IMG/VR virus record: IMGVR_UViG_3300035208_002115 | Length of the DNA: 64,000 nucleotides | Direction: 5' to 3' (one strand) | DNA from: a virus | Lineage: Duplodnaviria; Caudoviricetes | Shown: one piece after another, positions 1,394-10,149 of the stretch | How the letters are laid out: each line of letters begins with the position of its first letter | Numbering within the stretch: the stretch's first letter is position 1 | The notes under the pieces: generated by a model | Told to the model about the DNA's origin: nothing | What the model saw: the letters and a program-made list of their open reading frames with translations, nothing else | Database searches by the model: none | Translations under genes and position numbers: made by a program

Positions 1394-1968
1394 TTAGTTT
1401 TAATAGAATTTTTATCGAAAATAACATATGAATTTTTATCCCCCAACCCAACATCTTCTAAATCTTCTATCTCAGTAGTCGAATATTTTAATCCAACATA
1501 ACCCATTTTGTTTAAAGCCATGTTGATTACCGAACATACATTTGCATATGAATTAAAATTATTATAAATTAAATCATTCTTTTTAAGAACATCATAAAAT
1601 TCTGACCTTGAATCTAATGCCCAACTAAGACGAATATAATCAATATCAGTGTCCTTTGGTAGCTTTCCATCATTATAATCAATAACCTCTTGTAAATACT
1701 TAGAACATATGTTTGTTTTTAAAATATTATCTATATTAAAAAGAATTTTTCTGAATTCAGATGAGGTAAACGGTTTAGTCGTGTCGTATATTTTCCCTTC
1801 AATAACATATTCTCTTATCGTATCTCCGTAAAATTTAGCCACACCTAAATCATCAGTTAAATATAAACCCTTCCCAAATAAATCAACGTTACCACTATTA
1901 TTTTTACCTTCACCCCTTATAAGAGTTAATGGACTATTATATTCTTCAAAAAGTTTAATATATTTCAT
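1390..1968 (-). CDS. putative ADP-ribosyltransferase-like phage protein with MKYIKLFEEY N-terminus
   Basis: LIRGE...FGKGLYLTDD..VAKFYG...MGYVG motifs resemble ART-fold proteins of large phages. Confidence 0.5.
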   Translation of the reverse strand: MKYIKLFEEYNSPLTLIRGEGKNNSGNVDLFGKGLYLTDDLGVAKFYGDTIREYVIEGKIYDTTKPFTSSEFRKILFNIDNILKTNICSKYLQEVIDYNDGKLPKDTDIDYIRLSWALDSRSEFYDVLKKNDLIYNNFNSYANVCSVINMALNKMGYVGLKYSTTEIEDLEDVGLGDKNSYVIFDKNSIKTK

Positions 1969-2034
1969 ACCTGATATATATTAAAAATATAAAACTTTTT
2001 TAGATTTTAAAAATATATTAATAAAAGTATACCG

Positions 2035-2733
2035 ATGTCGTTTGATATAAAAAAATATATTTATAAAACTAAACCTGTGTTTAATAAACACCTTTTATTT
2101 CATCACACATATAATTACGCCTTACAAAAAATATTAAATACAGATACTTTACTGGTCAAACGTACATGTGATAAAGTCACTTCAATTTCTTTCACGAGAT
2201 GTTCATATTATTCAGATGAAAATGATGAAAGAATTGTATTAGATTATAATTTATTGAAAATAGATGGGTATAATACAACACCATATGATGAAGTCGCCAT
2301 TAATTGCAGACGATTTTTGAATAAAGATTCTTTTGAATCTAAAATGAAAGGATATTCTAAAGCTAACCCAGCAACAATCGGAAGATATATAAATAATAAA
2401 TTAAACACAAAAGTACCTAATAAAATGAAATCTGACCCATTGGAGTGGGAATACGAAGAACGCATTTTTAAAGACATAAAAAACCTTGGCAAATATATAA
2501 TCAGTATCGATATAAATATTAATGATTTAAAAGATTCCTCACATTTTATTAAAGATTACATTGATAAATATCCACACATTGAAATCACTATATTCGATGA
2601 ATCAAAACCTTACGATAGAAGATATAAAGTGGATTTTAATGAAATGTATAGTGATTATATTGAATATAGGAACTATATTAAAAAAATGGTAAGTGAAGAT
2701 TTGTTCATACGGTTAATTGTTGATGGTTCATAA
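2035..2733 (+). CDS. hypothetical protein
   Basis: 232-aa ORF followed by a hairpin terminator (about 2758-2792). Confidence 0.7.
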   Translation: MSFDIKKYIYKTKPVFNKHLLFHHTYNYALQKILNTDTLLVKRTCDKVTSISFTRCSYYSDENDERIVLDYNLLKIDGYNTTPYDEVAINCRRFLNKDSFESKMKGYSKANPATIGRYINNKLNTKVPNKMKSDPLEWEYEERIFKDIKNLGKYIISIDININDLKDSSHFIKDYIDKYPHIEITIFDESKPYDRRYKVDFNEMYSDYIEYRNYIKKMVSEDLFIRLIVDGS

Positions 2734-2852
2734 AAGGGCTATGTTATAGGTAATTGTTTGTCCAGTTTTTATTATTAAAAACTGGACATTTTTATTTTAA
2801 AAATACCAACTTTTCAATCACACCAGAATATATTGAGAAATAGAATTTTCAA

Positions 2853-3281
2853 ATGGCTATACTCAATTACACCACTTCAATAAAATGTGAAAAGACATTA
2901 ATGGAAATACAACAATGTCTGGTTAAACACGGTGCAACTAAAATTGTAACCGATTATAATAATCAAATACCAATAGCTGTCACGTTTTGTCTTACAATAA
3001 ATGATAAACTGATAGCTTATTCACTACCAGCTAATTATAAAGGTGTCCTGAATTCTATGAAAAAAGACCATAAAGTCCCTCGGAAATTAGTAACAGATGA
3101 ACAAGCTCTCCGAGTTAGCTGGAGAATTATAAAGGATTGGGTAGAAGCTCAATGTGCAATAGTAGATGCTCAACTGGCTGACGTGGCCGAAGTATTCCTA
3201 CCATACGCTGTTGCAAAAAGTGGTAAAACTCTTTATAATGAGATTAAAGATGGTGGAATGAAAATGTTGATGGAAGGGTAG
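2853..3281 (+). CDS. hypothetical phage protein
   Basis: 142-aa ORF (..RVSWRIIKDWVEAQ..EVFLPY..), directly upstream of iscB. Confidence 0.7.
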   Translation: MAILNYTTSIKCEKTLMEIQQCLVKHGATKIVTDYNNQIPIAVTFCLTINDKLIAYSLPANYKGVLNSMKKDHKVPRKLVTDEQALRVSWRIIKDWVEAQCAIVDAQLADVAEVFLPYAVAKSGKTLYNEIKDGGMKMLMEG

Positions 3282-3339: not shown

Positions 3340-4929
3340 ATGAAGAACAACCCAATTTATGTTATAGATTTCAACGGGCAACCATTAATGCCAACATTCA
3401 GATATGGTAAGGTTCGTCATATGCTTAAAAATAACCAAGCAAAAATAATAAAAAGAGACCCATTCTTTACTATTCAATTATTAACAAACACATCGTCATA
3501 TATACAGTATATTATTGGTGGTATAGATATTGGTGAAACCGTTGGAATATCGGTAATAAACCCAAAAAATAATACTGAAATATTGTCTGCCGAATTAAAA
3601 ACACGTAGTAAAGATATTCCAGATAAACTTAAAGAAAAAACTCAATATAGAAGAACCCGAAGAAATCATTTAAGATATAGAACAAAAAGATTTGAGAATA
3701 GGAAATCTTCATTAGGTAAATGTAAAGTGTGTGGTGGTAATACTAAAAGTGGAAAAGAATTTTGCTCAACATGCTTAGATACAGTTAATGGTAATCATAA
3801 TGCTTATAAAGATATTTCTAAAACTACATCACAAAAAAGACTTGCACCAAGCGTAAATCATTTAATTGATGCCAATCATAAAATTATAAATAAAATAAAT
3901 GAAATATTACCTATTAAAGAAGAAAATTGGATATACGAAAAAGTTAAATTCGATATACAGAAAATAGAAAATATTGATATATCAGGTGTTGGATATCAGC
4001 AAGGTGATATGTTTGGTTTTTCAAGTTTGAGAGAATATATATTAGAAAGAGATGAACATACATGTCAAAACCCCAACTGTAAACATAAGAATATTAAAAA
4101 CCTAAAAAAAGGTGAAAATGTTTATTTGAAAAATAATATTACATTAGTAACACATCATATAATATTCAGACATCTTGGTGGCACAGATAAACCAAGTAAT
4201 TATATTACGTTGTGTACTGATTGTCATATACCAACAAATCATCTAAAGGGTTATTTTTTATATGATTGGTGTATAAAAAAGAAAAAAGTTAAAAGTGATT
4301 ATAAAGCTGCTACTAAAATGAATGTGGTCGCTTCTTCTTTTGATGAAAAAAAGAATTTTATACCCACGTTTGGTTCTGAAACAAAAAGAAAAAGACAATT
4401 GATTGGTTTAGATAAAACCCATTCGAATGATGCCCTTTCTATTTGTATAGATAAAAATAATTTTGATTTGATTGATGATTCTGGAAAAAAGAAAGTTGTT
4501 TTAAAACGAGATTTCAATTTAAAAAAAATAGAACATCCTGATTATCTTATTCAAACAAATGGTCGTTCTAATGGTAGACGAGCATTAAGTACATTTCAGG
4601 ATTCTAAATATATTGATATCAGAGATGGAAAAGAAAAATCAGGAAAAGAGTTATCAAAAGAAATGGATAAACGAACACTTATAAATAATAATAGAATTTA
4701 TAGGGGAAAGAAAACAAGTAAAGGTTCTTTTGTTAAAAGAACTGGTATAAGTGAATTTCCAAATAATTCAATTATCGAATTTACATATAATGGTAAACAT
4801 TTTATTAAAGTGTGTGGTGGTGTAACTGGATATAATGTATATGTTAAAGATTTCGAGAAAAAAACAGTTGCAATAAAAAAATGTAATGTAAAAATAATCT
4901 GTAAAAGAAAAGGTGTTATTAAAAAATAA
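3340..4929 (+). CDS. iscB: IscB RNA-guided endonuclease (OMEGA; CRISPR-associated), 529 aa
   Basis: N-terminal GQPLMP; RuvC-I GIDIG (D63); Arg-rich bridge helix RRTRRNHLRYR; RuvC-II IYEKVKFD; HNH THHI..RHLGGTD..SNYITLCTDCH; RuvC-III KTHSNDA; extra CxxC-x10-CxxC insert after the bridge helix. Confidence 0.95.
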   Translation: MKNNPIYVIDFNGQPLMPTFRYGKVRHMLKNNQAKIIKRDPFFTIQLLTNTSSYIQYIIGGIDIGETVGISVINPKNNTEILSAELKTRSKDIPDKLKEKTQYRRTRRNHLRYRTKRFENRKSSLGKCKVCGGNTKSGKEFCSTCLDTVNGNHNAYKDISKTTSQKRLAPSVNHLIDANHKIINKINEILPIKEENWIYEKVKFDIQKIENIDISGVGYQQGDMFGFSSLREYILERDEHTCQNPNCKHKNIKNLKKGENVYLKNNITLVTHHIIFRHLGGTDKPSNYITLCTDCHIPTNHLKGYFLYDWCIKKKKVKSDYKAATKMNVVASSFDEKKNFIPTFGSETKRKRQLIGLDKTHSNDALSICIDKNNFDLIDDSGKKKVVLKRDFNLKKIEHPDYLIQTNGRSNGRRALSTFQDSKYIDIRDGKEKSGKELSKEMDKRTLINNNRIYRGKKTSKGSFVKRTGISEFPNNSIIEFTYNGKHFIKVCGGVTGYNVYVKDFEKKTVAIKKCNVKIICKRKGVIKK

Positions 4930-4967
4930 TTTTTTTATATCATTATTTTTTTTATTTTTACATTTAA

Positions 4968-4976
4968 GTTCTTTGA
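4968..4976 (+). promoter_or_regulatory. boxA-like antitermination element upstream of the CRISPR array
   Basis: GTTCTTTGA; the same 9-mer recurs at 6232 and 6585 inside the tRNA cluster. Confidence 0.5.
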
Positions 4977-5032
4977 AATTTTGTTAAATATCGATTAAGC
5001 AGTCACACCTTAAAAATGCGACTTTGTAACTT

Positions 5033-5504
5033 GTTGTGTATTGCTTTCAATTAATTAAGTAATTCAGTTATATAGTTGTGTATTGCTTTCAATTGATTGG
5101 GTAACTCAGTGGAGCAATATTTATATTAAATCAAAGCAGGGTTGTGTATTGCTTTCAATTGATTGGGTAACTCAGTATAAAATAATAGAATTAGAAAAGC
5201 GGTTAAGTTGTGTATTGCTTTCAATTGATTGGGTAACTCAGTGGTTGCTATTGATGGCATCGTGTTAGCTTTGTTGTGTATTGCTTTCAATTGATTGGGT
5301 AACTCAGTTTCTTCTTAGCAAGTTTAGTCGCATTCAGTGTTGTGTATTGCTTTCAATTGATTGGGTAACTCAGTTTATATCAGGTTTTACAAATGTGGCA
5401 ACGTTGTGTATTGCTTTCAATTGATTGGGTAACTCAGTAAGATATCTATGGTGATGAACCTTGGGATAGTTGTGTATTGCTTTCAATTGATTGGGTAACT
5501 CAGT
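5033..5504 (+). CRISPR. CRISPR array, 8 x 36-nt repeats GTTGTGTATTGCTTTCAATTGATTGGGTAACTCAGT
   Basis: Repeats start at 5033 (degenerate, 4 mismatches), 5075, 5141, 5207, 5273, 5339, 5403, 5469; spacers of 6, 30, 30, 30, 30, 28 and 30 nt. Confidence 0.98.
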
Positions 5505-5790
5505 ATAGCAATAAACAAATCGTTGTTAATCAATCATTTGAAACTAAAATCCGATGTAAAAAATCGAATTTTTTGAACACATTTAGACTAAGAGAAAGGA
5601 TTTTTCCAATCCTAATATCTACGTTATGTTAGAATGTGGATTAAACCACAAATAGGTACGTTAGTGTGATTCCCAAGCACTATCTTCTACGGTTGTTTTT
5701 TAAACATCTCTGTGCAATAGGAGAAGTGAAAACAACAATAAACCTAACAATAACTTTGTCAAAGGGAACTAACAGGATTTATTCCTGATT
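5505..5790 (+). ncRNA. omegaRNA/HEARO-like scaffold with 5' anti-repeat segments (tracr-like), contiguous with the last CRISPR repeat
   Basis: Ordered omegaRNA-type motifs AGACTAAG, CTACGTT, ATAGGTAC, CCCAAG, TCTACG, TAAACA, AGTG, AAACC, ATAACTTTGTCAAAGGG; 5507-5518 and 5525-5543 are complementary to the repeat; boundaries approximate. Confidence 0.8.
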
Positions 5791-5818
5791 TATTGATATT
5801 TAACAATTTCAAAGAAAT

Positions 5819-5857
5819 AATAAAAGCAGATGATTTATTTATCTGCTTTTATTTTTT
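5819..5857 (+). terminator. intrinsic terminator closing the CRISPR-omegaRNA transcript
   Basis: 13-bp stem AATAAAAGCAGAT/ATCTGCTTTTATT followed by a T-run. Confidence 0.75.
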
Positions 5858-5877: not shown

Positions 5878-5908
5878 TTTGTTTATATCGTAATAAGTAT
5901 TACATTTG
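5878..5908 (+). promoter_or_regulatory. Bacteroidota sigma-A-type promoter for the tRNA operon
   Basis: TTTG (5878-5881), 19 nt, TACATTTG (5901-5908); matches the -33 TTTG / -7 TAnnTTTG consensus. Confidence 0.7.
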
Positions 5909-5984
5909 CAAAGTCAAAATGGAAAAAAGTGACCTTTTTGACTTAATATATAAGAAAACAAAAACAAATTTAAAATAACGCAAA

Positions 5985-6071
5985 ATGCTACTTTGTAATT
6001 TATATAATATGTATCTTAATAACTTAGAGAATGATAAAACTCTGGGCAGGGATATACTATGTATAAGTTAA
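5985..6071 (+). CDS. putative attenuator leader peptide MLLCNLYNMYLNNLENDKTLGRDILCIS (28 aa)
   Basis: ATG 5985 to TAA 6071 between the promoter and a terminator; overlaps GGCAGGG (6045-6051), which can pair with the terminator 5' arm. Confidence 0.7.
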   Translation: MLLCNLYNMYLNNLENDKTLGRDILCIS

Positions 6072-6100
6072 AAGCGGTAAAGCATTAAAATATACAACGG

Positions 6101-6130
6101 AAACCCTGCCAGATTTGGCAGGGTTTTTTT
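6101..6130 (+). terminator. intrinsic terminator / attenuator just before the first tRNA
   Basis: AAACCCTGCCA-GATT-TGGCAGGGTTT plus T-run; alternative pairing available with 6042-6051. Confidence 0.85.
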
Positions 6131-6139
6131 GTTTTATAC

Positions 6140-6220
6140 GGCTTCATGGTGGAATGGCAGACACGTTAGTCTTAGGAACTAATACCGAAAGGCGTGAGGG
6201 TTCAAGTCCCTCTGAAGTCA
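6140..6220 (+). tRNA. tRNA-Leu(UAG)
   Basis: GGCTTCA/TGAAGTC acceptor stem, loop CTTAGGA, long variable arm, GGTTCAAGTCC T-arm. Confidence 0.93.
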
Positions 6221-6365
6221 CTAAAAAAAGAGTTCTTTGAAGAAATAAGGTTAGTAATCTGGACGCTTAACCAGCAGAAGGGTGAAGTTTCCTTGGAAGA
6301 AATTGATACAAACAGGCTTTGGTGGTTCTTAGCAATGTGTTGATAAAGTGACCGAAAACATAAAT

Positions 6366-6438
6366 GGAGCGTGTGGCGTAATTGGTAACGTGTATCCCTG
6401 TCACGGATAAGTTCGGGGTTCGAGTCCCCCACGCTCCG
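6366..6438 (+). tRNA. tRNA-Asp(GUC)
   Basis: GGAGCGT/ACGCTCC stem, loop CTGTCAC, GTTCGAGTC. Confidence 0.9.
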
Positions 6439-6446
6439 CTTAATTT

Positions 6447-6521
6447 GGTGCATTGGGCTTCGAGAAGGAGAACATGGTTGTCACCCATGTAAAATTAACG
6501 GATTGTCACCGTTATGCACCG
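6447..6521 (+). tRNA. atypical tRNA-Asp(GUC)-like RNA
   Basis: Perfect GGTGCAT/ATGCACC acceptor stem and CATGG-TTGTCAC-CCATG anticodon arm, but non-canonical D arm and T loop. Confidence 0.55.
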
Positions 6522-6650
6522 CTTAAAATTCACAAAATGTGATTTACAAATTGTGAATTCTCGATTTGCTAATTGCGAATCGATGTTCTTTGACGTATTG
6601 GGAAAAGGTATTTAAAATACGCCAGTGTGGATAGGTTCACACTGGTAAAT

Positions 6651-6724
6651 GGGGGTGTAGCGTAGTTGGTTAGCGCAACTGACTGTTAATCAGTAGGTCG
6701 TAGGTTCAAGTCCTACCACCCCCG
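6651..6724 (+). tRNA. tRNA-Asn(GUU)
   Basis: GGGGGTG/CACCCCC stem, loop CTGTTAA. Confidence 0.93.
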
Positions 6725-6732
6725 CATAAAAT

Positions 6733-6817
6733 TTCGTTGTGGCAGAGTGGTCAATTGCAACAGGCTCATATCCTGTGGTTAGAAATAACTTCGTGGGTTC
6801 GAATCCCACTGACGAGA
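6733..6817 (+). tRNA. tRNA with CAU anticodon (Met/Ile2) and long variable arm
   Basis: ACAGG-CTCATAT-CCTGT anticodon arm, variable arm GGTTAGAAATAACTTC, GGTTCGAATCC T-arm. Confidence 0.8.
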
Positions 6818-6824
6818 CAATAAT

Positions 6825-6896
6825 GGACATGTAGCTCAGAGGCAGAGCGACACCCTGTTAAGGTGAGGGTCGGGATTTCGATATTCTCCTTGTCCG
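6825..6896 (+). tRNA. tRNA-Asn(GUU)
   Basis: GGACATG/CTTGTCC stem, loop CTGTTAA, T loop TTCGATA. Confidence 0.8.
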
Positions 6897-6910
6897 CTTT
6901 TTAAAATATA

Positions 6911-6998
6911 TGCGAGGTGGTGTAACTGTTAACACGCTTGGCTCATAACCAAGAGACATCAAATGCTTGTGTGGGTTAGAATCCCACCTTCGCTCCCA
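6911..6998 (+). tRNA. tRNA with CAU anticodon (Met/Ile2), extended variable region, encoded CCA
   Basis: CTTGG-CTCATAA-CCAAG; GTGGG-TTAGAAT-CCCAC. Confidence 0.75.
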
Positions 6999-7095
6999 TT
7001 AACAATTTTTGTCGTAGTGGACGACAACCATTCAGGTAAGCTGGGTATCAAAATTTAACCATCAAGAAAGTGAGAGGCTTTCATTAAAAATATAT

Positions 7096-7169
7096 CGCAG
7101 GGTAGAGCAGTTGGTAGCTCGTCAGACTCATAATCTGAAGGTCGTGGCGTTCAAATCCCACCCCTGCAA
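7096..7169 (+). tRNA. initiator-type tRNA-fMet(CAU)
   Basis: CGCAGGG/CCCTGCA with C1:A72 mismatch; loop CTCATAA. Confidence 0.85.
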
Positions 7170-7175
7170 CTAAAT

Positions 7176-7247
7176 GCTCGGTTCGTATAGTGGTTAGTAC
7201 ACAACACCTTCAATGTTGTTACAGGGGTTCAATTCCCCTACCGAGTA
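7176..7247 (+). tRNA. tRNA-Glu(UUC), C at position 33
   Basis: GCTCGGT/ACCGAGT stem; CAACA-CCTTCAA-TGTTG. Confidence 0.8.
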
Positions 7248-7255
7248 CAAAATTT

Positions 7256-7338
7256 GGATAGGTAGCGAAGTGGTCAAACGCAATTGACTGTAAATCAATC
7301 ACTTACGAGTTTCGCAGGTTCGAATCCTGCCCTGTCCA
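7256..7338 (+). tRNA. tRNA-Tyr(GUA)
   Basis: GGATAGG/CCTGTCC stem, loop CTGTAAA, long variable arm. Confidence 0.93.
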
Positions 7339-7349
7339 CTTACTTAAAT

Positions 7350-7424
7350 GTTCGGTTCGTCTAACGGTCAAGGACGGCAGGTTTTCATCCTGTTAATAGG
7401 GGGGTTCGATTCCCCTACCGAATA
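7350..7424 (+). tRNA. tRNA-Glu(UUC)
   Basis: GTTCGGT/ACCGAAT stem, loop TTTTCAT. Confidence 0.88.
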
Positions 7425-7427
7425 CTA

Positions 7428-7763
7428 TTATCTCTCAGTATTAATCCAATAAGATTTGATATTTTCCTTGGCATCTTCGTCATATTCGATATATACTTCG
7501 CCTAAAGTTCTACCGTATTTTGCTAACCAAATACGTTTTTCATCGGCTAAACGATACCTGTTTTTCTTATCATATTCGACCGTTTCTATTCTATCGAGTT
7601 TACTATATAATTGTTTCTCGAATTCTTCTTTGGATATATGTTTAAATTGATTGTCTTTATGTTGTTCAACATAGGTTAAATATATAGCACGGTCAAAACG
7701 TTGTTGGTGTGTTTCACCGAAATCTTCATTTAAGAATTGGGAAAAGGATTGAACATTTTTCAT
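7428..7763 (-). CDS. hypothetical protein with N-terminal FxxFLNE motif, antisense within the tRNA cluster
   Basis: 111-aa ORF MKNVQSFSQFLNE; AATATATA motif upstream. Confidence 0.7.
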   Translation of the reverse strand: MKNVQSFSQFLNEDFGETHQQRFDRAIYLTYVEQHKDNQFKHISKEEFEKQLYSKLDRIETVEYDKKNRYRLADEKRIWLAKYGRTLGEVYIEYDEDAKENIKSYWINTER

Positions 7764-7842
7764 GATAAATAAAAATATTTTTTATTATATATTAAACATC
7801 TTACCATAATTTGACTATTTATAGAAAAATATTTTAATTAAT

Positions 7843-8025
7843 ATGATGGATGTTTCAGAATATAAAAGAAGAAGAAGACGTGCTTTAAAAGCAGTAAAGG
7901 CTCATACAAAATATAACAAACAAGAAGTGAAAGAATATTATGCTACTTGTAAATCCTATAAACAAACAATGGAACATTTTGGGATGACAAGTAAAGGCAC
8001 ACTTCATTGGAATTTAAATAATTAG
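7843..8025 (+). CDS. small hypothetical protein
   Basis: 60-aa basic ORF. Confidence 0.45.
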   Translation: MMDVSEYKRRRRRALKAVKAHTKYNKQEVKEYYATCKSYKQTMEHFGMTSKGTLHWNLNN

Positions 8026-8108
8026 CCCTCATGTCGAAAGTTTGGTAGCCGAAGCAGTTTCAAACACTGTTGCTGAAAGGCGTGTAGGTTCGAGTCCTAC
8101 TGGGGGTA
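8025..8108 (+). tRNA. tRNA-Leu(CAA)
   Basis: GCCCTCA/TGGGGGT stem, loop TTCAAAC, long variable arm. Confidence 0.88.
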
Positions 8109-8140
8109 CATACTATATTGATAAAAAATAATAATTTTAT

Positions 8141-10074: not shown

Positions 10075-10149
10075 AGTGCGTTAGTTCAGTGGTAGAATAC
10101 AAGTTTGTCACACTTGGGGTCAGGGGTTCAAATCCCCTACGCACTGCCA
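10075..10149 (+). tRNA. tRNA-Asp(GUC), encoded CCA
   Basis: AGTGCGT/ACGCACT stem; CAAGT-TTGTCAC-ACTTG. Confidence 0.92.

Follow-up and report, generated by a model that had tools for sequence, protein, structure and literature searches.

The stretch of viral DNA analysed here (64,000 nucleotides, referred to as the window) lies within a virus record of 675,678 bp, i.e., a 676-kb phage, and carries an iscB gene, an eight-repeat CRISPR array, an anti-repeat and an omegaRNA, in this particular order. The same IscB protein is also encoded on a contig of 678,337 bp. The landfill megaphage genome paper (PMC12607003) gives a predicted CRISPR array only. The main features of the locus are the following:

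3340 to 4929, plus strand: iscB, 529 amino acids, with a CxxC...CxxC insertion at residues 128-145
4957 to 4979, plus strand: promoter-like TACATTTA, then the leader motif GTTCTTTGAAAT (4968-4979); the motif is conserved, the promoter role putative
5033 to 5504, plus strand: CRISPR array, 8 repeats of 36 nt with six real spacers of 28-30 nt
5439 to 5468, plus strand: last spacer (spacer 6), directly 5' of the repeat strand of helix P1a (below) and the presumed guide of the cis form
5469 to 5504, plus strand: last repeat, 36 nt
5575 to 5773, plus strand: HEARO-type omegaRNA core (Rfam RF02033, 67 bits, E 2.2e-12)
5586 to 5590, plus strand: pseudoknot strand GACUA, inside the omegaRNA core
5773 to 5857, plus strand: 3' hairpin (5773-5787) and intrinsic terminator (to 5857), the terminator stem being read from the sequence and from comparison with a sister phage

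The IscB protein scores 240.3 bits with the NCBIfam model guided_IscB (NF040563), for which the cut-off is 175, and contains the Pfam domains RRXRR (E 5e-42) and HNH; its nearest solved relatives are TbaIscB (9k30) and OgeuIscB. The gene begins 58 nt after the upstream ORF. Residues D63, E200, H272/H273, H361 and D364, at the presumed RuvC/HNH catalytic positions, are invariant in an alignment of 15 family sequences. The family comprises about 15 proteins with 42-62% identity and is known from metagenomes only; no member above 39% identity was found in the species-genome collection.

Array, leader and relatives of the locus

Neither Cas1 nor Cas2 family proteins were found in the 676-kb genome, and outside the locus it contains no second HEARO match and no further copies of the repeat. 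A scan of IMG/VR for the repeat pattern recovered the sister phage as the sole locus, and a scan for the scaffold motif recovered 26 loci, with an omegaRNA in the sister phage alone. Among the related metagenomic loci, L001/L002, L003, L169 and L160/L161 share the order ORF, leader, array, anti-repeat and omegaRNA; L162 has the ORF-array-scaffold order too, its contig ending inside the scaffold, and the contigs of L158, L159, L164 and L170 stop at the first repeat. L167 is arranged as array, omegaRNA and ORF. Neither an array nor a HEARO match was detected within the contig of L157, the IscB of which (1696-3279) is 58% identical to that of the window; a tRNA gene ends 20 nt upstream of its iscB start codon.

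The leader motif is kept in ten of ten family loci, and all array-bearing loci have it in the form GTTCTTTGA[AC]AT. A TAnnTTTG box precedes it by 13-28 nt in eight of nine related loci; the window has a one-off variant of this box only, TACATTTA. The motif GTTCTTTGA at 4968 is found again at 6232 and 6585, inside a tRNA cluster downstream, and occurs genome-wide 5 times on the plus strand and 15 times on the minus strand, where some 4 would be expected on each. It may serve the phage as a promoter or as a signal for RNA processing. The dense tRNA cluster itself (5901-8109) lies directly downstream of the scaffold terminator, is headed by the promoter box TACATTTG at 5901 and consists of 12 genes (Leu, Asp x2, Asn x2, Met/CAU x3, Glu x2, Tyr and Leu), with an additional tRNA-Asp at 10075. 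This arrangement of terminator and tRNA cluster is kept in the sister phage.

Seven of the eight repeats are identical. Repeat 1 (window 5033-5080) is degenerate and is followed by a spacer of just 6 nt (TATATA) and then by the next repeat. The degenerate repeats of the window, L001, L003, L160 and L169 all lie nearest the promoter, a polarity suggestive of array growth at the scaffold end. No spacer has a second match in its own phage genome or in any related locus examined, and exact 20-mers of three spacers gave no match in IMG/VR. The sole GenBank phage match (39 nt, 87% identity, E 0.04) spans a spacer-repeat boundary and was taken as chance. At the other end of the locus, the terminator stem is formed by pairing of 5826-5831 with 5841-5846, followed by a T-run to 5857, and has undergone compensatory changes relative to the sister phage (GCAGAT/ATCTGC against GTGGAT/ATCCAC).

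The sister phage (G001, 640 kb) has a syntenic locus on its minus strand (L281, G001:C1:391000-397500), in which iscB is truncated after about codon 104 and continues directly as a repeat; the array is reduced to two repeats and one spacer, and the scaffold persists. The arrangement reflects either a deletion of recent date or continued use of the scaffold. A second IscB of 465 aa is encoded elsewhere in the same phage (G001:351145-352038).

The possibility has to be weighed that the window locus, too, is a decaying remnant, the pairings of which are no longer under selection. The fusion of the truncated sister gene into a repeat, the lack of a detectable target for any spacer and the lack of cas1 and cas2 in the genome all speak in its favour. 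On the other hand, iscB of the window is of full length, the residues at the presumed catalytic positions do not vary in the family, seven of the eight repeats do not differ, and the window and the sister phage share 96.7% identity in the omegaRNA core, with compensatory changes, as compared with about 80% in the flanks. We consider decay very unlikely.

The junction formed by the last repeat and the scaffold

The preliminary description of this DNA had placed omegaRNA core motifs behind the last repeat. This was borne out by the match to the HEARO model at 5575-5773, which covers model positions 1-211 with an E value of 2.2e-12, although its 67 bits stay under the gathering score of 83; relatives score 71-80 bits. 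Locally, the 5' stem of the model, P1, is unmatched, and the repeat and 5577-5581 are predicted to form an equivalent stem; the missing match agrees with a P1 that draws its 5' strand from the repeat, some 100 nt further upstream. The elements of this part of the locus are:

5471 to 5475, plus strand: 5' strand of P1a, repeat nt 3-7 (TGTGT), paired with 5577-5581 in minimum-free-energy folds
5481 to 5499, plus strand: 5' strand of P1b, repeat nt 13-31, paired with segB
5500 to 5524, plus strand: apical loop of P1b, 25 nt, holding the segment segA (next section); unpaired in the minimum-free-energy fold
5525 to 5543, plus strand: segB, the main anti-repeat and 3' strand of P1b (duplex -14.1 kcal/mol)
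5546 to 5572, plus strand: P1c, an A/U-rich hairpin that splits the anti-repeat halves, present in all seven folded loci
5577 to 5581, plus strand: 3' strand of P1a (ACACA), the nested second half of the anti-repeat, identified by covariation across 13 loci

The minimum-free-energy fold of 5439-5800 yields P1a, P1b and P1c with a z-score of -2.6. Seven related loci with differing repeats, folded singly, give the same nested three-way junction, and so does RNAalifold on the five closest loci, where 11 of the 32 pairs show compensatory changes. In the consensus structure of these five loci, 85% of the cells pair, against 36-55% in slid registers, and none of 500 shuffles matched the observed values. 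The earlier proposal that the last spacer, repeat and scaffold can fold in cis as a single guide RNA is thus upheld by the individual fold, by the seven loci, by RNAalifold and by the compensatory changes.

The segB strand of P1b had been described as matching the reverse complement of repeat nt 13-31 at 16 of 19 positions, which is exact, one of the mismatches being a G.U wobble, and the helix is the best duplex that the repeat can form within the following 296 nt. In the main helix, 7 of 13 pairs are changed on both sides (alignment columns 13-25 with 63-75), as are 3 of 8 pairs in P1c by compensatory changes. In the sister phage, repeat nt 30-31 have gone from AC to GT, matched by a change of GT to AT in segB. 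Among the seven loci, the loop that joins repeat and anti-repeat is 41 nt long in L162 and 10-20 nt in the other six, and the distance from the repeat end to the TTAGAC motif is 77-78 nt in the five closest loci.

P1a is shorter (5 bp and -5.3 kcal/mol in the window). Its ACACA strand lies immediately 5' of the TTAGAC pseudoknot strand, and in every locus the P1a 3' strand occupies positions 2-6 before TTAGAC, in the same register. P1a is the same throughout the five closest loci, so that the evidence for its covariation comes from more distant ones, which were aligned by the TTAGAC landmark. Across 13 loci, about 5.4-5.6 of 6 positions are paired on average within a locus, as compared with 3.55 in cross-locus controls. 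The pairs of strands, with the repeat given first and the six (or five) nucleotides before the pseudoknot motif second, are:

repeat nt 2-7 TTGTGT, with ACACAA
repeat nt 2-7 TTGAAG, with TTTCAA
repeat nt 2-7 TTGTTG, with CAACGA
repeat nt 2-7 TTGTAA, with TTACAA
repeat nt 2-7 TTTTAG, with TTAAAA or CTAAAA
repeat nt 1-5 CTATT, with AATAG

A pairing of GTTGTT (5522-5527) with 5576-5581 was also considered and was rejected, as it comprises 3 bp only.

Two relatives bear on the origin of this helix. L166 (1-300) is a family member with a plain omegaRNA, the P1 hairpin of which begins with TTGTGT and finishes with ACACAA; its contig starts close to the hairpin. In L167 (1-700), the array closes with a direct degenerate repeat, which folds into the guide-adaptor hairpin on its own. 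Taken together, L167 and L166 resemble steps by which the repeat could have arisen from the first stem of the omegaRNA. P1a is the counterpart of the basal part of the guide-adaptor hairpin of IscB, and from its covariation and from the hairpins of L166 and L167 we infer that the 5' end of the repeat is the 5' strand of that hairpin. Kato et al. have equated the repeat:anti-repeat duplex of Cas9 with the guide-adaptor hairpin of IscB (PMC9640706).

The anti-repeat of the locus is split, yet nested and colinear: segB comes first and ACACA (5577-5581) follows. The preliminary description had recognised the split, and in this it was right; it had, however, taken segA as the second half, a role that falls to the nested ACACA, since this strand pairs with repeat nt 3-7 and covaries with them.

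A second complementary segment in the joining loop

SegA (5507-5518, AGCAATAAACAA) matches the reverse complement of repeat nt 2-13 (AGCAATACACAA) at 11 of 12 positions; the count given in the preliminary description proved exact. Its observation that the two matches are swapped, with the complement of the 5' half of the repeat preceding that of the 3' half, is likewise correct. When the 20-nt loop was shuffled 2000 times, 0.5% of the shuffles attained 11 of 12 Watson-Crick pairs (p 0.005), and the segA of the sister phage makes 12 of 12 pairs, three of them G.U (p 0.0035). The complementarity of segA to the repeat is non-random. What it means is uncertain, and we regard it as doubtful that segA has a real function, i.e., that it serves as an additional anti-repeat segment in its own right.

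A somewhat smaller likelihood still attaches to two specific forms of such a role, in which segA would be a functional second anti-repeat or a co-transcriptional placeholder of the guide adaptor. In the former, segB would bind the 3' two-thirds of one repeat and segA of the same scaffold the 5' third of the next, so that one spacer is looped out for processing. In the latter, the 5' half of the repeat would be held in cis by segA until the distal ACACA strand has been transcribed. Bridging of two repeats by one scaffold is suggested by spacing: by hand count, segA, a 6-nt linker and segB are spaced as two directly abutting anti-repeat copies would be, and 22 of 29 positions are identical to the predicted junction of two copies. 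If true, bridging by segA would loop out exactly one spacer, a bridging or measuring way of recognising pre-crRNA that is undescribed for tracrRNAs. A working segA is also favoured by the predicted folds of nascent transcripts: those ending at 5520 or 5530 fold as a segA hairpin and switch to P1b once segB is present; the segA helix is worth -9.2 kcal/mol, and enforcing it costs just 2.4 kcal/mol over the minimum.

The complementarity of segA is shared with the two nearest relatives and is weak in those further removed. L001 retains the segA register with nine Watson-Crick pairs and one G.U, including one compensatory change (G11:C to A11:T), and on the alignment, with G.U allowed, 83% of the cells of the segA helix pair, against 32-48% when slid; both speak for a working segment. 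Against it, L003 and L169 form four of 12 Watson-Crick pairs each in the segA register (hand count), the Watson-Crick match of loop to repeat is, even at its best, without significance in L003, L160 and L162, and the best loop-repeat match of L169 lies in another register. The observed values did not exceed those of the column-shuffle control (256/500), because the repeat side barely varies. Compared with the sister phage, segA is 75% identical and the post-repeat loop (5505-5524) 70%, as against 79-83% in flanking non-coding DNA, so that segA diverges at a near-neutral rate, about that of its non-coding surroundings.

Geometry also argues against a working segA. Pairing of segA (12 bp) and segB (19 bp) with one and the same repeat would be a pseudoknot crossing P1b with linkers of 0, 7 and 6 nt, and we judge such simultaneous pairing sterically implausible. 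Moreover, a cut of RNase III type in the P1b duplex would discard segA together with the loop. SegA is thus probably outside the mature architecture, as the remnant of a second, abutting anti-repeat copy or as a transient or alternative pairing.

Two further readings of this region were set aside. If the loop and segB had been copied, in inverted orientation, from repeats 1 and 2 and the 6-nt spacer between them, the spacing would be 12 nt, not 6, and a trans cofold that used segA was disregarded, as it depended on the 3' end of spacer 5. As a separate observation, the first full repeat and the last one, with their surroundings (5072-5119 and 5466-5513), are 96% identical over 48 nt, a stretch that takes in 3 nt before the repeat and 9 nt after it. 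Spacer 1 starts with GGAGCAATA and the loop with ATAGCAATA; spacer 1 may therefore be related to the loop/segA sequence.

Proposed mode of action and relation to known systems

Altogether, we think it likely that the locus is a phage-borne CRISPR-associated IscB system, the last array unit of which folds as a natural single guide, the other units being served in trans. Array and omegaRNA would most likely be made as one transcript, from the promoter/leader near 4957-4979 to the terminators after 5773 (5773-5787 and 5823-5857). The last unit would fold in cis, with spacer 6 leading into a long interrupted guide-adaptor stem in the form of the three-way junction: P1a from repeat nt 3-7 and 5577-5581, P1b from nt 13-31 and segB, and P1c inserted between the anti-repeat halves. 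The pseudoknot strand and the HEARO core would come directly after the junction. IscB is expected to bind this single guide and to cut DNA matching the spacer beside a target-adjacent motif. Upstream spacer-repeat units could form the same P1a and P1b in trans, in the manner of crRNA and tracrRNA, with a scaffold whose cis repeat had been cut away.

An opposing reading has the scaffold act in trans only, from a separate tracrRNA-like transcript with its own promoter, the cis hairpin being an accident of adjacency. There is one sigma-70-like match at 5523-5550, and an additional scaffold would be useful, as seven repeats per transcript share a single one. Promoter-like matches, however, show no excess (7 against 6.1 in shuffled sequence), which left an internal sigma-70 promoter unsupported; the stretch from the last repeat to the core is free of TAnnTTTG boxes, and the short loop between repeat and anti-repeat is retained in most relatives. 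We consider this trans-only reading improbable.

On this interpretation, the locus would be a natural stage between an omegaRNA and a crRNA:tracrRNA pair, in which the 5' strand of the IscB guide-adaptor stem is now supplied by the CRISPR repeat and the anti-repeat has not yet parted from the scaffold. The required pairs are defined by covariation as nt 3-7 with 5577-5581 and nt 13-31 with 5525-5543, and these offer a direct design for minimal single guides for this family of 529-aa nucleases. The phage is also a clear case of a megaphage with a guide-RNA nuclease and an array and with no adaptation genes. As for the source of spacers, the repeat matches the pattern GTTGTGNNTTGCTTTCAA in its first 18 nt, and 32 of the 301 Bacteroidia genomes sampled contain this pattern in arrays that have a period of 76-77 nt. 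Since these 18 nt match Bacteroidia arrays, use of host adaptation proteins by the array is plausible, and the shared sequence makes the borrowing of host Cas1-Cas2 testable. If spacers enter at the scaffold end via a host II-C Cas1-Cas2, the natural single guide would at all times carry the newest spacer.

CRISPR-associated IscB systems were reportedly described by Altae-Tran et al. in 2021. The window locus agrees with them in having an array beside iscB and a guide RNA that consists of spacers, repeats and an anti-repeat, and in a repeat/anti-repeat hairpin that is continuous with an omegaRNA-like scaffold and so acts as a natural single guide. As a general claim the natural single guide is not new, because a repeat/anti-repeat hairpin fused to the scaffold RNA has been published for the CRISPR-associated DelIscB (PMC12660989), and it is documented that IscB-CRISPR associations arose independently (PMC10734277). 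In DelIscB, the RNA lies upstream of the ORF, whereas array and scaffold are downstream in the window, L001, L003, L169, L160 and L162. The window locus further differs in its place in a 676-kb phage, its 529-aa protein with a zinc-finger-like insertion and its anti-repeat interrupted by a hairpin. New are the position of array and scaffold downstream of the ORF in the clade of the window, the megaphage setting without adaptation genes, and the anti-repeat split by a hairpin, together with the covariation that places its true second half at 5577-5581. The order-swapped segA is a real sequence feature, albeit of uncertain meaning.

With canonical HEARO/omegaRNA the window RNA shares the pseudoknot, the core helices and the 3' region, all of which align, and a guide located 5' of a guide-adaptor stem that ends just before the pseudoknot strand. 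The compact P1 hairpin of the canonical RNA is, in the window, a three-way junction of 110 nt with a CRISPR repeat as its 5' strand, and the canonical RNA lies upstream of its ORF, while that of the window lies downstream.

The type II-C systems of Bacteroidia have 30-nt spacers as well, a repeat:anti-repeat duplex in the same role and a degenerate repeat at the transcription-proximal end, a polarity typical of II-C arrays. They differ in using Cas9 with a REC lobe, as opposed to a 529-aa IscB without one, in their cas1/cas2, absent in the phage, and in a repeat of 47 nt; the repeat of the window has 36 nt and is joined in cis to an omegaRNA scaffold of about 200 nt. At the Bacteroidia locus L304 (G070:C51:95883-98796), the 47-nt repeat has a partial complement of its 3' end about 38 nt past the last repeat, and a terminator-like hairpin comes after this complement.

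Finally, engineered sgRNAs have the same succession of spacer, repeat, loop, anti-repeat and scaffold on one strand. There the loop is a tetraloop, whereas the RNA of the window is natural, with a loop of 25 nt and an anti-repeat split by a hairpin.
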